Positions 20,465 through 63,202 of a stretch of DNA of 64,000 bases are shown in pieces (positions within the stretch are counted from its first letter, which is position 1; each line of letters opens with the position of its first letter). Below the pieces are notes generated by a model. The model was given only the letters and a program-made list of their open reading frames with translations. It did no database searches and had not been told where the DNA came from. The translations under genes were made by a program, and so were the position numbers. The stretch covers positions 116,701 through 180,700 of the IMG/VR virus record IMGVR_UViG_3300010213_000001. One strand, written 5' to 3'. The DNA is from a virus. Its lineage: Duplodnaviria > Heunggongvirae > Uroviricota > Caudoviricetes.

Positions 20465-21019
20465 TTATGTTGTAACAGACTTCTTAAATATATGTTCTTT
20501 AGTATATGACACTAAAATATTTTCAATTTGATTTATGTTGCTGGACTCCATGACAATATCTGCTAATACAGGACTAGTTGTATATCTTCTACTCTGTTCA
20601 TGGTTTTCTACTACTTCTGCCATTTCAACAACATAAGCCCACCTCAATAGCTCATCTAATTCTTCATCTTCGTCCATATCTAAATCTAATAACAGAATTA
20701 TTATAGTATCATTACAGTAGTTATCTATATAGGATATTTGTGTTAGTATATACTCTGCAGCAAAGAAAGTAGCTTCCCATCTACAATCAGCAACAAATGA
20801 TCTCTCCCATTCTGTTCCATCTATAGTTAGACTAGCGATATACTCATTGTTTAAATTAGATTTAAATATTTGTATATAATAACCTAATTGACTTAGTGAA
20901 TCAGCCATATCAGTTAGTATGTTAATATACCCTAATTTATCCATAGCTATTGTAGCTACAGTATAGGATGAAGCTATATTATATAAGTTGCTACAGTGGT
21001 CATATAGTGATCTACTCAT
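20465..21019 (-). CDS. hypothetical protein
   Basis: 184 aa acidic ORF. Confidence 0.7.
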   Translation of the reverse strand: MSRSLYDHCSNLYNIASSYTVATIAMDKLGYINILTDMADSLSQLGYYIQIFKSNLNNEYIASLTIDGTEWERSFVADCRWEATFFAAEYILTQISYIDNYCNDTIIILLLDLDMDEDEELDELLRWAYVVEMAEVVENHEQSRRYTTSPVLADIVMESSNINQIENILVSYTKEHIFKKSVTT

Positions 21020-21491
21020 TTAATTTAGTAAAAGCTTTATTTAGTATATTAAATACTCTTTTCTCTATACCCTTACTTTTACTTTCTCTGTTTCCAGCTA
21101 TATTTATAGCTGTATAGTTTCCATCTTTGATAAACTTAATTATATCATCCACTGTAGATTCTTTCCTTATATCTACTTTGTTAAGATATAAATAAGGCTT
21201 CCCGTTCTTCATACAGAAAGTCTTTGTCAATTTACTACCTCCTGATTTGGCTTCATCAAATATAATAGTACAATCTGTACTTATTACATTTTTTAGAGTT
21301 CTTCCAGCGTAATTATCGCTAGTAGTAGTAACTGCTCCTAATTTTGAATACTCTGGCTTTTTACCATTTTCAGTTATATACCCTTTTGGCATGAATCCTT
21401 TAGTTTCAAGACCATTACTTATAGCTGCTTTAATACCAGCTATGTCTGCTCCAGTTTGGAATCCAGACCATATTGTAATATTACTTTTCAT
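21012..21491 (-). CDS. SLOG superfamily protein (cpYpsA / putative molybdenum carrier family)
   Basis: SGFQTGADIAG, RT.KNV..TD.T, SGGSKLT, INIAGNRES. Confidence 0.85.
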   Translation of the reverse strand: MKSNITIWSGFQTGADIAGIKAAISNGLETKGFMPKGYITENGKKPEYSKLGAVTTTSDNYAGRTLKNVISTDCTIIFDEAKSGGSKLTKTFCMKNGKPYLYLNKVDIRKESTVDDIIKFIKDGNYTAINIAGNRESKSKGIEKRVFNILNKAFTKLNE

Positions 21492-21669
21492 GTGTTAATG
21501 CGTCTTCTTCTATAACCTCTTGTAAAGCTTTAGATAAATTGTATTCCGAACTTTTCTGCTTCTCTCTTTCTCTTGGAGAAATATCTGTTCTATGTCTACT
21601 AGTATTATATCTCCATTTTTCTAATACTCTTAAAGTAAAGAGTACCTTTTTATTCAATTTATTTTCCAT
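21481..21669 (-). CDS. hypothetical protein
   Basis: 62 aa ORF. Confidence 0.55.
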   Translation of the reverse strand: MENKLNKKVLFTLRVLEKWRYNTSRHRTDISPREREKQKSSEYNLSKALQEVIEEDALTHEK

Positions 21670-21679
21670 AAATATTTTA

Positions 21680-21912
21680 TTATTTAAATGTTCTTGGAAA
21701 AGGAATGATATCTCTAATATTTCCCATTCCTGTTACGTATTGTATTATTCTCTCAAACCCTTATATGGGATATATCTATCCCTTCTACTACAACTTGTAG
21801 TTTATCTAGTTTACTATCATTTGTTATAGATAGAAAAGACACATTAGAGCTTTCTCTCTTGTGTCTTACCCACCCATTCAAAGTGATAGTACCCCAACTT
21901 GGGGTACTCCAT
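21680..21912 (-). pseudogene. asnS: internally deleted asparaginyl-tRNA synthetase relic
   Basis: Hand translation. 21887-21753 = ITLNGWVRHKRESSNVSFLSITNDSKLDKLQVVV (OB-fold N-terminus). 21760-21680 = GFERIIQYVTGMGNIRDIIPFPRTFK* (class IIb motif 3 and AsnRS C-terminus). Confidence 0.85.
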
Positions 21913-21930
21913 ATTGTTTATTAATTGCAT

Positions 21931-22314
21931 TTATTCTGGTTGAATTATTCTTAAAGCTTCATTAAGTACTCTATTAAATTCCAGTTCAGTTATCTCAGAA
22001 ACGTCCTCTCTAAGAATATCAGCATCAAATACAGCTCTGTTTTCTATCAAGAATCTTTCTCCTCCTAACTTGGACAATGTAATGTTTAACACTATTACAC
22101 TATTTTTATATCCTCTATTAGATTGATATACCTTAAAGTAACTATTTTCAAAAGAATCATAGAAACATTTACCAGTAAGATTTGCTGATACTACTAGTTT
22201 CTCTTCTCTTACAATTTGCTTTAATCTATTAATCTCTTCTTGAAGATTAGCAATTATCTTCTGAGACTCAATTATCTTTTGTTCTGTTTCTTGTATTTTA
22301 TTATTGTTTAACAT
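21931..22314 (-). CDS. hypothetical protein, coiled-coil N-terminus
   Basis: GKCF...YFKV...EITELEF; resembles 25698-26138. Confidence 0.7.
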   Translation of the reverse strand: MLNNNKIQETEQKIIESQKIIANLQEEINRLKQIVREEKLVVSANLTGKCFYDSFENSYFKVYQSNRGYKNSVIVLNITLSKLGGERFLIENRAVFDADILREDVSEITELEFNRVLNEALRIIQPE

Positions 22315-37073: not shown

Positions 37074-37507
37074 TATTTATTTTCATTTTGATATTCTTCG
37101 CTACAATTCATATACTGACCTAAAGCTTTATGACTTATATACTTCTTTTTAATATTAAAGTATTTTATTTTATCAGCAATAAAAGATTGATTCTTTAAAT
37201 CTTTACAAAGTAATTGTAGGAATCTTGTTTCTTCTTTTACAGTAGGTCCAATATCTATATAGATGTGTAATGTAACACCACATATATTTATACTCTTATC
37301 TATTCTTAATACCTTACTATTGTAGGCTTCCATAAAAACTGGTCCTCTAGGAAATTTAGTATAACAATCATTAAGTTTATCTTTATACTCACTCTTTAAT
37401 CTAAGTTTAATTAAGCTAGATTTATAACGACGTGTAAAAAATATAGTCTTTTTATACTTAGTTTTGCTAATAAGCTTATTAGCAAAATTTAATAGTGATT
37501 CTTCCAT
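37067..37507 (-). CDS. hypothetical basic protein
   Basis: 146 aa ORF. Confidence 0.65.
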   Translation of the reverse strand: MEESLLNFANKLISKTKYKKTIFFTRRYKSSLIKLRLKSEYKDKLNDCYTKFPRGPVFMEAYNSKVLRIDKSINICGVTLHIYIDIGPTVKEETRFLQLLCKDLKNQSFIADKIKYFNIKKKYISHKALGQYMNCSEEYQNENKYW

Positions 37508-37518
37508 AATTATAATTT

Positions 37519-38997
37519 TTAATATGCTCTAGCAAACAAAACACGTTCTTTAGAAGGCTTGCCTGTTAGAATACAAACTCCGTCTTCTTGAGGATTATTC
37601 AAAGGAATACACCGAATAGTTGCTTTTGTTTTTTCTTTGATTTGTTCTTCTGTTTCGGCTGTGCCGTCCCAGTGTGCAGCAATAAATCCACCTGCATCAA
37701 GAGCTTTTTCGAATTCTTCCCACGTATTTACGTATGTGGTATTAGAAGTTCGGAACATCAACGCTTTTTCATAAATATTTTGTTGAATATCTTTTAAAAG
37801 CTCTTCTATTTTTTCGCCTGCACCTTCTAGCTGCCACGACATTTTTTCTTTTGTATCTCTACGAGCTACTTCTACCGTTCCGTTTTCGACATCACGCATT
37901 CCGATAGCTAAACGAACAGGGACACCTTTCAATTCCCATTCTGCAAACTTAAATCCTGGACGGAAAGCATCTCTATCGTCTAGCTTTAAAGAAATATTGG
38001 CTGCTTTTAGTTCGTGCATAAGAGGAATTAAAGCTCGTTTGATTTCCTTCAAATCATCTTCACTTTTATAAATAGGAACAATAACTACTTGAATAGGAGC
38101 CAATTTTGGAGGTAAAACCAAACCTTCATCGTCGGAGTGAGCCATAATAAGCGCACCCATAAGACGAGTCGAAACGCCCCAAGAAGTTCCCCAAACATAA
38201 TCTAATTTATTGTCTTTGGCTGCAAATTTCACATCAAAGGCTTTAGCAAAATTTTGTCCCAAGAAATGAGAAGTTCCTGCTTGAAGTGCTTTTCCGTCTT
38301 GCATGAGTGCTTCAATACAATAAGTTTCTTCTGCGCCTGCAAAGCGTTCGGATTCGGTTTTTAAACCTTGAATTACAGGAAGAGCCATATAATCTTCTGC
38401 AAAATCGGCATAGACTTTTACCATTTGTTCGGTTTCTTCAATAGCTTCTTGTTTAGTAGCGTGTGCAGTATGTCCTTCTTGCCACAAAAACTCAGCAGTA
38501 CGCAAAAACAAACGAGTACGCATTTCCCAACGCACCACATTTGCCCATTGATTGACTAAAATAGGCAAATCTCTATACGATTGAATCCAATTTTTATAGG
38601 TATTCCAAATAACAGCCTCACTTGTTGGGCGCACAACCAATTCTTCTTCTAGTTTTGCCTCTGGGTCTACCATTAACTTCCCTTCTTTGTTAGGGTCATT
38701 TTTCAGACGGTAATGTGTAACGACTGCACACTCTTTTGCAAAACCTTCTGCATTTTTTTCTTCGGCTTCAAACAAACTTTTCGGAACAAAAAGAGGAAAG
38801 TATGCATTGCTGTGTCCTGTTTCTTTAAATTTATCGTCTAAAATGCGTTGCATTTTTTCCCAAATAGCAAAACCGTAGGGTTTGATAACCATACAGCCAC
38901 GAACGGCTGAATGTTCTGCTAAATCTGCTTGTTTTACGAGTTCGTTGTACCACGCTGAATAATCGTCTTTGCGTGTAGGTAGTCCTTTTTTCACCAT
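37519..38997 (-). CDS. proS: prolyl-tRNA synthetase (archaeal/eukaryote-type form found in Bacteroidota)
   Basis: [72 protein letters not shown]-terminal FARAY. Confidence 0.97.
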
Positions 38998-44955: not shown

Positions 44956-44983
44956 TAAAAGAGATGAATATTCATCTCTTTTA
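44956..44983. terminator. perfect 28-bp palindrome, probable bidirectional terminator
   Basis: TAAAAGAGATGAAT|ATTCATCTCTTTTA between convergent genes. Confidence 0.75.
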
Positions 44984-50789: not shown

Positions 50790-51299
50790 TTATTGTTTAG
50801 TTAATAAGCTATTTGGTCTAAATTCAGGTATTCTACCTCTCTTTAATTTTATAAATTTCTCTCCGTCTTTAGTTGGAACTATGACACAGTAGTAGTGACT
50901 CTTTTCTATATACTTAGCTGCATTGACAAATGTTTTAATTTTATCCTTACCGTGACCAAGCATAAGATTACAAGGACTACATAATAGTCCTCTTACCTGT
51001 CCACTATTATCTTCATGACTATGTTCATGATCTACTACTAGTTCATTCATAGGTTTTGCTTGTTCGCATATGGCGCACTTACCTTCCTGAGCTTTGTACA
51101 AGTTTTCTAAATCTTCAGTATCTATATTATATGTAGCTTTTAAGTAATTATCTTTAGATGATTTAACAGTACCTATATTACTGTTGTAGAATTCTTCAAT
51201 AACTATATGCTGTGATTCAGCATATAGAATAGTTTTGTATTCGTCAGTAATATTTTCATTGTTATTTACTTGTTTTGAGTTCATTATTAATTTTGGCAT
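50790..51299 (-). CDS. endonuclease VII-family (His-Me finger) nuclease
   Basis: QEGKCAIC...LVVDHEH...VRGLLCSPCNLMLG. Confidence 0.88.
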   Translation of the reverse strand: MPKLIMNSKQVNNNENITDEYKTILYAESQHIVIEEFYNSNIGTVKSSKDNYLKATYNIDTEDLENLYKAQEGKCAICEQAKPMNELVVDHEHSHEDNSGQVRGLLCSPCNLMLGHGKDKIKTFVNAAKYIEKSHYYCVIVPTKDGEKFIKLKRGRIPEFRPNSLLTKQ

Positions 51300-52457: not shown

Positions 52458-52485
52458 TAGCATAGAGAAATTAATCTCTATGCTA
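52458..52485 (-). terminator. intrinsic terminator
   Basis: Stem TAGCATAGAGA/TCTCTATGCTA followed by a T9 run on the minus strand. Confidence 0.85.
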
Positions 52486-62312: not shown

Positions 62313-63202
62313 TTTTTTCTCTTAGCCTCCTCTCTTGCAAGCTCTTCTCTCTTCTTCTCTAATGACTTTTTCAATATCCCAACAGAAGTTCCCTCAGGAT
62401 TTTTCTTTATACTTGTCTCCAGTCTCTCTATATCTTTCCTTAGCTGTTCCTCAGTACTTGATCTAGATGGATTTTCTTCATTTTTGCTTATCTTGTCATG
62501 AAGATGCCTCATTCTCTCTTCTGGTGACATCTTTTTCAAATCTTCTAAATCTTTATTACTTTTTTTCTTCTTATTAGAAGATTCCATAATAGCAAAGAAA
62601 TCATCACCAAATTTCTTTTTAGCATAAGCTAGAATAGCTGCCAATACATTTAGGAAAGGAGTACACCAAACATTATAGAACACCACTCTATTCATTGTAA
62701 CAACTTTCTGTTCGACAGTTGGTATCCAAGATGTAGCTGAAGTTTTATAAGTTATTGCATTTATAGACTCCAGGTAACTCATCCATATTGTGTATGTACA
62801 GTATGTAGCTAAAGCAAAGAACATAAGTGATACCATTAATGCAAATCTCTCTTTCTTCTCTATTTTACCATCTGCTAATATTTTAGATATAATTCTAATA
62901 AAGAAGAAACTAAAGAACGATTCTGCTAAAACCCACTGACCATATCTGAACAAGGCTTGTGTAATATGTGTGTTAGGATCAATAGTCACTAGATTAAATG
63001 TCTCAGATGCTGAGCTTACCAGCAGTAGTAGCTCGCACAATAATAATGGGTCTAGAGATATTAGATCTGATATGTTTTTCTTTTTATAAAATATTAGAAA
63101 AAGAATATAACATATCACAATAATAAGTAGCCCCAAAGCTCCCAACATTACAATATCTGTAATACTCTGGTACCGAATCAACGGTGTATTTTCTGTGTTC
63201 AT
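62309..63202 (-). CDS. multi-pass membrane protein with C-terminal charged coiled coil
   Basis: About five hydrophobic helices, then a K/E-rich tail ending ...KRKK*. Confidence 0.8.
   Translation of the reverse strand: MNTENTPLIRYQSITDIVMLGALGLLIIVICYILFLIFYKKKNISDLISLDPLLLCELLLLVSSASETFNLVTIDPNTHITQALFRYGQWVLAESFFSFFFIRIISKILADGKIEKKERFALMVSLMFFALATYCTYTIWMSYLESINAITYKTSATSWIPTVEQKVVTMNRVVFYNVWCTPFLNVLAAILAYAKKKFGDDFFAIMESSNKKKKSNKDLEDLKKMSPEERMRHLHDKISKNEENPSRSSTEEQLRKDIERLETSIKKNPEGTSVGILKKSLEKKREELAREEAKRKK
62312..62318 (-). promoter_or_regulatory. candidate -1 programmed ribosomal frameshift heptamer A_AAA_AAG
   Basis: Zero-frame A AAA AAG immediately before the TAG stop; same heptamer as E. 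coli dnaX and IS3-family sites. Confidence 0.7.

Follow-up and report, generated by a model that had tools for sequence, protein, structure and literature searches.

Phage genomes are compact, and recognisable pseudogenes are rarely kept in them. The locus described here raises the question of why a 261-nt gap between two phage genes (21931–22314 and 21481–21669) encodes, on the minus strand, the two ends of an asparaginyl-tRNA synthetase (AsnRS) with the middle missing, and what has become of that sequence since. Unless the record itself is named, coordinates refer to the window, the 64,000-nt stretch at positions 116,701 to 180,700 of the IMG/VR virus record IMGVR_UViG_3300010213_000001.

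The source record measures 244.7 kb, is 96% complete with 30% GC, and encodes a terminase, a portal, and a major head protein. Its terminase shares 25–30% identity with counterparts in crAss-like phages that infect Bacteroides, Flavobacterium, and Cellulophaga; classical crAss-like phages are far smaller than 245 kb. The remnant is embedded in this bona fide phage genome, with phage genes tightly packed on both sides, and its gap is one of 17 that reach at least 250 nt among the 233 gaps of the genome (median 30 nt). The genome carries one canonical tRNA. Elsewhere in the record, four consecutive giant ORFs on the plus strand (record positions 62435–97673; 2972, 4649, 2529, and 1554 residues) may encode a virion RNA polymerase or ejected proteins. 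The features of the locus are collected in Table 1.

Table 1. Coordinates of the asnS remnant, its parts, its neighbours, and the intact synthetase gene of the window.
Feature	Position	Strand	Description
Whole asnS remnant	21680–21930	-	Fills the gap separating two phage genes
Putative original 5′ end	21897–21930	-	ATG 21930 and second ATG 21912; one base out of the OB-fold frame
N-terminal OB-fold (anticodon-binding) fragment	21768–21890	-	About 41 codons recognisable
Deletion-junction interval	21761–21767	-	From last N-side homologous codon TCC (Ser) to first C-side GGG of GFER
C-terminal fragment	21680–21760	-	26 codons, from end of class II motif 3 to PFPRT tail, plus stop (21682–21680)
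Perfect palindrome	21888–21908	.	10-bp arms, 1-nt centre; includes G4 run 21892–21895
33-bp imperfect hairpin	21812–21891	-	In OB-fold coding remnant; 4 G-U pairs on sense strand, AAAG loop; predicted fold
Upstream flanking gene	21931–22314	-	127 aa, orphan; found itself alone among 1.84 billion representative proteins
Downstream flanking genes	21012–21669	-	62-aa ORF (21481–21669) and cpYpsA SLOG-family protein (21012–21491)
Intact prolyl-tRNA synthetase, proS family I	37519–38997	-	549 bits against a cut-off of 437

Identity and lesions of the asnS remnant

Extent and identity: the remnant begins at ATG 21930, which adjoins the TAA of the upstream gene, and ends with a TAA located 11 nt ahead of the next ATG. 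What is retained corresponds to the first ~55 codons of AsnRS, covering the start of the OB-fold anticodon-binding domain, and to its last 26 codons, the two lying in differing frames. Translation of the minus strand gives an AsnRS-like N-terminus, GTITLNGWVRHKRESSNVSF...KLQVVVEGIDIS, in one frame, and the C-terminus GFERIIQYVTGMGNIRDIIPFPRTFK followed by a stop in another. The N piece matches positions 1–35 of the 75 in the Pfam family tRNA_anti-codon (E 2.4e-4; 21.4 bits against a cut-off of 27) and positions 18–54 of the 455 in the NCBIfam model asnS (TIGR00457; E 2.4e-7); on the evidence of these profiles, it clearly derives from an OB-fold anticodon-binding domain, which is incomplete. 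The C piece (21760–21683) matches positions 284–307 of the 308 in tRNA-synt_2 (PF00152), positions 422–446 of the asnS model (E 2.9e-9), and the solved AsnRS structure 6pqh (E 1.1e-6). The sequence-only reading had proposed a homology search of the two fragments against AsnRS as a check; both matches are significant, the pieces are collinear on the one strand, and each piece on its own favours asnS over aspS and lysS by at least four orders of magnitude.

A read-through of the fossil, made by a one-base step at the G-run and a one-base step at the junction, matches 859 full-length AsnRS among 5.8 billion proteins, with a best E-value of 4.7e-14. All 859 have AsnRS architecture, and wherever a source supplies a name, it is asparagine--tRNA ligase. 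Against the family models, the read-through scores E 2.2e-16 for asnS, 6.6e-7 for aspS, and 4e-3 for lysS. An AsnRS remnant on the minus strand with both termini kept is what the earlier reading had described, and the peptides it quoted lie where it had placed them.

Alignment to intact proteins defines what is missing. Fossil residues 10–54 correspond to residues 11–58 of proteins that are 476–480 aa long, and fossil residues 56–82 correspond to their residues 446–472. Identity to cellular AsnRS reaches 45–52% over the OB-fold strands and 78–92% over the last 26 residues; 27 of the 29 positions that are invariant in the AsnRS alignment and fall within the fossil survive, including 10 of the 11 N-terminal ones. 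In all, ~365–390 codons are absent, or ~1.1–1.2 kb including nearly all of the catalytic core, which bears out the earlier claim that more than 1 kb of the interior was lost. Of the class II core with its motifs 1, 2, and 3, positions 284–307 of the 308 in PF00152 are what remains. No other PF00152 or PF01336 signal is present in the 244.7-kb, 96%-complete record, so the catalytic core has not moved elsewhere in it. The closest point of reference is the bacterial AsnRS of Bacteroidota type, such as a 476-aa protein encoded beside rpoN in a Bacteroidota metagenome-assembled genome (MAG): the N-terminal length agrees to within one residue, whereas the fossil lacks ~80% of the protein, motifs 1 and 2, and most of motif 3, and has its pieces in different frames. 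It is not an uninterrupted ORF, as two frame changes are needed to read through it, and it scores 59.8 bits against an asnS cut-off of 342.6. Taken together, the profile and protein matches show the locus to be a genuine asnS pseudogene, an AsnRS stump with an internal deletion.

Lesions: four departures from an intact gene are visible. First, the internal deletion is out of frame. The OB-fold frame (21896–21756) is open as far as TGA 21755–21753, and homology on the N side extends to the Ser codon 21770–21768 (VVVEGIDIS in the fossil, VVVEGESIS in a top match). On the C side homology begins at GGG 21760, which confines the junction to 21767–21761. The sequence-only reading had the two halves overlapping at GGGTT (21756–21760); the two open frames do overlap there, but no overlap of homology can be demonstrated, and the microhomology-mediated deletion proposed by that reading would be a candidate mechanism. 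Second, a 1-nt frame change lies between 21912 and ~21893. The OB-fold frame has no start codon upstream, ATG 21930 and ATG 21912 share a frame that is one base off, and deleting a single base at or close to the G4 run (21895–21892) brings both into the OB-fold frame. In the segment 21897–21930, AsnRS homology is weak and length alone agrees, with fossil numbering offset by one from the 476-aa Bacteroidota AsnRS. Third, the Gly of the NDG motif, invariant in the AsnRS alignment and in all 48 of the genes compared, is Ser in the fossil. Fourth, the C-terminal tail falls four residues short of that of intact AsnRS. The N-frame is nonetheless open for 48 codons (chance ~0.02), and this openness, taken with the survival of 27 of 29 invariant positions, would be compatible with a lesion of very recent date or with a remaining degree of constraint. 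Some crAss-like phages recode stop codons; recoding was considered here and discarded, as the breaks are frame changes and not in-frame stops.

Two readings would deny that the phage lineage holds a dead gene here. That the remnant is still coding is exceedingly improbable. It could yield a 28-aa peptide from ATG 21930, a 42-aa ORF starting at TTG, or a fusion of the N and C pieces by a +1 frameshift at GUU UGA; the open frames exist, and ATG 21930 directly adjoins the upstream stop codon. The peptides, however, have no homologue or family, synthetase activity is impossible because the core is absent, and strong predicted hairpins would cover most of these frames. The frameshift fusion is rejected for its poor tRNA re-pairing: Val-tRNA cannot re-pair on UUU, unlike Leu-tRNA at the prfB shift site. 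That the deletion is an assembly artefact or a minority variant in a phage population carrying an intact asnS at this position is also very improbable, since the independent lesions (the frame change, the lost Gly, the tail shortened by four residues, and the hairpin-forming substitutions described below) go beyond a simple collapse of an intact gene.

Origin of the gene and its genomic slot

Donor: the best full-length matches come from cellular Bacteroidota, whose AsnRS genes lie next to rpoN in an ordinary chromosomal setting. In a tree built on a full-length backbone, the fossil falls within a 30-row clade (SH-aLRT 100) that contains all rows named Bacteroidota, nearest a Bacteroidota MAG and Arcicella, on a long branch and with 16% of columns filled. 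Judged by this placement, the gene is of Bacteroidota type, in line with the phylum in which the host of a crAss-like phage is to be expected. The description of the remnant as phage-like in composition, with Arg mostly AGA, holds: all five Arg codons are AGA, and GC3 is 0.21, like that of the adjacent phage genes. AGA is also used in the nearest cellular gene segment, whose GC content is 33%. Phage-like codon usage is equally compatible with such an AT-rich donor, and composition is thus no proof of long residence; the proposal of the sequence-only reading that the lineage long carried its own AsnRS is weak.

Relatives: we looked for an undeleted allele along several lines. Exact look-ups of the flanking proteins found none. 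In IMG/VR, neither the 127-aa and 159-aa neighbours nor the terminase led to close relatives, and megablast against phages gave no match. With the fossil itself as query, IMG/VR, JGI metagenomes, and GTDB genomes yielded cellular AsnRS C-termini only (33–57% GC). The 68 IMG/VR loci with AsnRS have zero neighbour genes in common with the fossil locus, and none of the 32 AsnRS records that could be searched carries a convincing crAss-like terminase, two matches being weak and partial. A complete 463-aa AsnRS in MT835501.1 ('UNVERIFIED Bacteriophage sp.', human faeces) was set aside because the entry looks bacterial, like a Clostridia-type chromosome fragment; its AsnRS lies beside a 405-aa lipoprotein-like ORF and an 814-aa glycoside-phosphorylase-like ORF, as judged by eye.

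Distant relatives were reached through homologues of a 197-aa ATPase (64% identity) and of cpYpsA (57–68% identity), including Logan contigs; the runs SRR15635848 and ERR12040027 contain relatives at 64–68%. Their gene upstream of cpYpsA differs from one to the next, encoding Thg1, NADAR, HNH, or phosphoribosyltransferase; elsewhere the contig ends too early. In the Logan SRR15635848 contig, for example, where cpYpsA is 64% identical, a Thg1-like tRNA-His guanylyltransferase (368–1183) lies directly upstream of cpYpsA. Such a change of gene per relative marks a fast-turnover accessory slot. The slot is hypervariable and repeatedly hosts RNA- and nucleotide-related genes.

This turnover bears on whether a whole asnS was ever present. 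Two short host pieces, or an already-deleted copy, might instead have been captured by illegitimate recombination, and the absence of any AsnRS trace from the 10 relatives' loci (68.5 kb), like the differing slot gene, counts in favour of such a capture. We hold it to be improbable, as the remnant starts at an ATG abutting the upstream stop and ends at the natural C-terminus, and chance capture of both is unlikely. The seamless fit between the neighbours' stop and start suggests that a complete asnS ORF was once resident.

We favour the following explanation, to which as a whole we assign a probability of about 85%. In this account, two genes of a 245-kb crAss-like phage would once have flanked a complete asnS of Bacteroidota type. 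The gene would have lost ~1.1–1.2 kb of its interior through an out-of-frame deletion, and with it the remainder of the OB fold and nearly all of the class II core; a one-base frame change near codon 12–13, loss of the invariant Gly, and shortening of the C-terminal tail are further lesions. The termini were probably spared since they abut the expression signals of the neighbouring genes. At some time after inactivation, the 5′ part would have been remodelled into a perfect gene-end palindrome and a 33-bp hairpin, by palindrome-templated (template-switch) mutation, by selection for an RNA element, or by both.

Two hairpins in the 5′ part of the remnant

Gene-end palindrome: the perfect palindrome starts 23 nt past the stop of the upstream gene and has a predicted stability of -14.5 kcal/mol. 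It belongs to a recurrent kind of element in this genome, which contains 32 perfect hairpins with a stem of at least 9 bp. Intergenic DNA makes up 7% of the sequence and holds 21 of the 32 (p 5e-17), mostly 6–60 nt downstream of stop codons and in several cases with A-tract or T-tract flanks. The perfect intergenic hairpins are probably the gene-end or terminator signals of the phage. The palindrome at the remnant has the properties of this class: a perfect stem of at least 9 bp, a position 6–60 nt after a stop, and an intergenic gap. Examples in the window lie at 37462–37487, 44956–44983, 51203–51227, and 52458–52485. The proS stop is followed, 32 nt on, by a perfect 13-bp palindrome. The palindrome at 21888–21908 is no canonical intrinsic terminator: AUCACUUUG follows the stem on the minus strand, without a U-tract (the scanner scored the plus strand only).

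The palindrome also bears on the nature of the frame change. The sequence-only reading attributed the shift of ATG 21912 to one extra G in the G4 run. A one-base change there does restore the frame, but a random slip is the less likely cause, because the G4 run is an arm of a gene-end-type palindrome and the added G renders that arm an exact match to the other. More likely, the extra G perfects a gene-end-type hairpin.

The 33-bp hairpin: the whole gap folds at -69.7 kcal/mol (z -5.8 against shuffles) and ranks 26th among 1881 genome windows, the better ones being nearly all G+C-richer and near the record ends. The hairpin at 21812–21891 has a minimum free energy of -35.6 kcal/mol, compared with shuffled sequence at -13.6 ± 2.5 (z -8.7), and is predicted as a single dominant fold with 47% of the ensemble. 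Three comparisons set it apart. First, among 34,946 sampled 84-nt windows from both strands of the genome, none reaches -35.6 kcal/mol, and the best sampled window is the same locus; the relatives' loci reach -22 to -28 kcal/mol only. Second, in 48 intact asnS genes, the homologous 84 nt have z-scores of -2.9 to +1.1, with the hairpin absent. Third, when the fossil peptide is recoded synonymously 3000 times according to phage codon usage, the minimum is -23.2 kcal/mol. As the recodings never fall below this value, neither the peptide nor codon usage accounts for the hairpin. An Rfam search gave no family match at E up to 1.

The changes that created pairs, identified against the nearest cellular gene, are clustered. 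ACG became CAC (Thr to His) opposite the Val codon GTG; Ser-Ser TCC TCG became AGC TCT; Gly-Ser GGA TCA became AGT AAA opposite Thr-Ile, turning the invariant Gly into Ser; and 3 nt were inserted. Because the helix-forming changes break conserved residues, the helix was probably completed after the protein had lost function.

How the helix arose divides into two main possibilities, which differ in whether the RNA is of use to the phage. In one, the hairpins would be neutral by-products of quasipalindrome-templated errors that perfected chance inverted repeats, including the +1 G, and the remnant would be functionless. Template switching during replication creates and maintains RNA hairpins (Monttinen and Loytynoja 2022, PMC8794818), and has been linked to de novo miRNA hairpins (PMC10710096) and to quasipalindrome mutagenesis (PMC7202029). 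The locus shares with these cases the clustered changes that turn an imperfect inverted repeat into a long helix and the one-base insertion that perfects a palindrome; multi-nucleotide clusters of pairing changes are the signature of template switching (PMC8794818, PMC10710096, PMC7202029), and the exact match of the palindrome arms made by the added G points the same way. We regard neutrality as a serious possibility, somewhat short of even odds. Three observations tell against it. First, all four wobble positions form G-U pairs on the transcribed strand and none is A-C, an outcome with a chance of ~1 in 16 if the process is DNA-symmetric; such a strand bias in the G-U pairs suggests that selection at the RNA level acted besides template-switch mutation. 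Second, the sense RNA (-35.6 kcal/mol) is much more stable than the antisense RNA (-25.8 kcal/mol) or a DNA cruciform. Third, the most stable 84-nt fold among the sampled windows of the 244.7 kb lies exactly where the phage puts its gene-end hairpins.

In the other possibility, the dead asnS stump would have been exapted as an RNA element: a 3′-end stabiliser or RNase III-type processing site, for which the upstream transcript would be the natural client, or a small structured RNA. We advance this reading tentatively, on the strength of the folding models, and place it rather below even odds. Early and late transcripts of phage T7 carry intergenic RNase III processing hairpins, and the predicted fossil hairpin resembles them in its length of more than 20 bp, its imperfect pairing, its location on the transcribed strand, and its position between two genes that form part of a single transcription unit. 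The predicted 33-bp helix exceeds the 20 bp of near-continuous dsRNA that characterise an RNase III-type processing hairpin as a minimum. The fossil and T7 hairpins have no sequence relation.

Gain and loss of synthetase genes in a large phage

The asnS remnant is not the only synthetase-derived locus of the genome. The sequence-only reading had pointed to proS as a second synthetase, and this gene is indeed an intact family I member. It carries a ProRS-C_1 domain, and its composition is foreign: GC is 0.39 against ~0.29, and Arg is mostly CGT/CGC against AGA in the neighbours. A 398-aa ORF on the minus strand at record positions 114017–115213, ~1.5 kb before the window start, encodes a partial ArgRS catalytic domain. 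It matches positions 175–297 of the 349 in PF00750 and positions 283–476 of the 569 in the argS model, at 64 bits against a cut-off of 262, and represents a third synthetase-derived locus, which has been truncated or has diverged strongly. Neither of the class I families 1b and 1c gives a signal in the genome, and PF00133 has a sub-threshold signal only, on the ArgRS-like ORF itself.

Aminoacyl-tRNA synthetase genes are known from huge phages, which carry up to 15 per genome, related to yet distinct from those of the host (Al-Shayeb et al. 2020, PMC7162821). The present case is likewise a gene of host-phylum type in a phage genome larger than 200 kb, here beside an intact proS and the ArgRS-like ORF. 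The synthetases of that survey (PMC7162821) are described as intact, whereas asnS here is dead and resides in a genome with one canonical tRNA. In the literature, we found no description of a decayed phage synthetase, and on synthetases in crAss-like phages we found passing mentions only. The asnS fossil is an instance of gene decay of an auxiliary gene, a process already known; the hairpin overlay is a new observation here.

For the biology of large phages, a dated-looking synthetase stump is direct evidence that they lose synthetase genes as well as gain them, and a single genome displays three states: an intact proS, a partial ArgRS-like ORF, and a dead asnS. Exaptation, if true, would explain why a piece of asnS has been retained in an otherwise compact genome, and would make the locus a clear case of a protein-coding pseudogene fragment turned into a structured RNA element in a phage. 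The hairpin offers a testable example of dead coding sequence becoming a long RNA helix, whether through template-switch mutation, selection, or the two combined.
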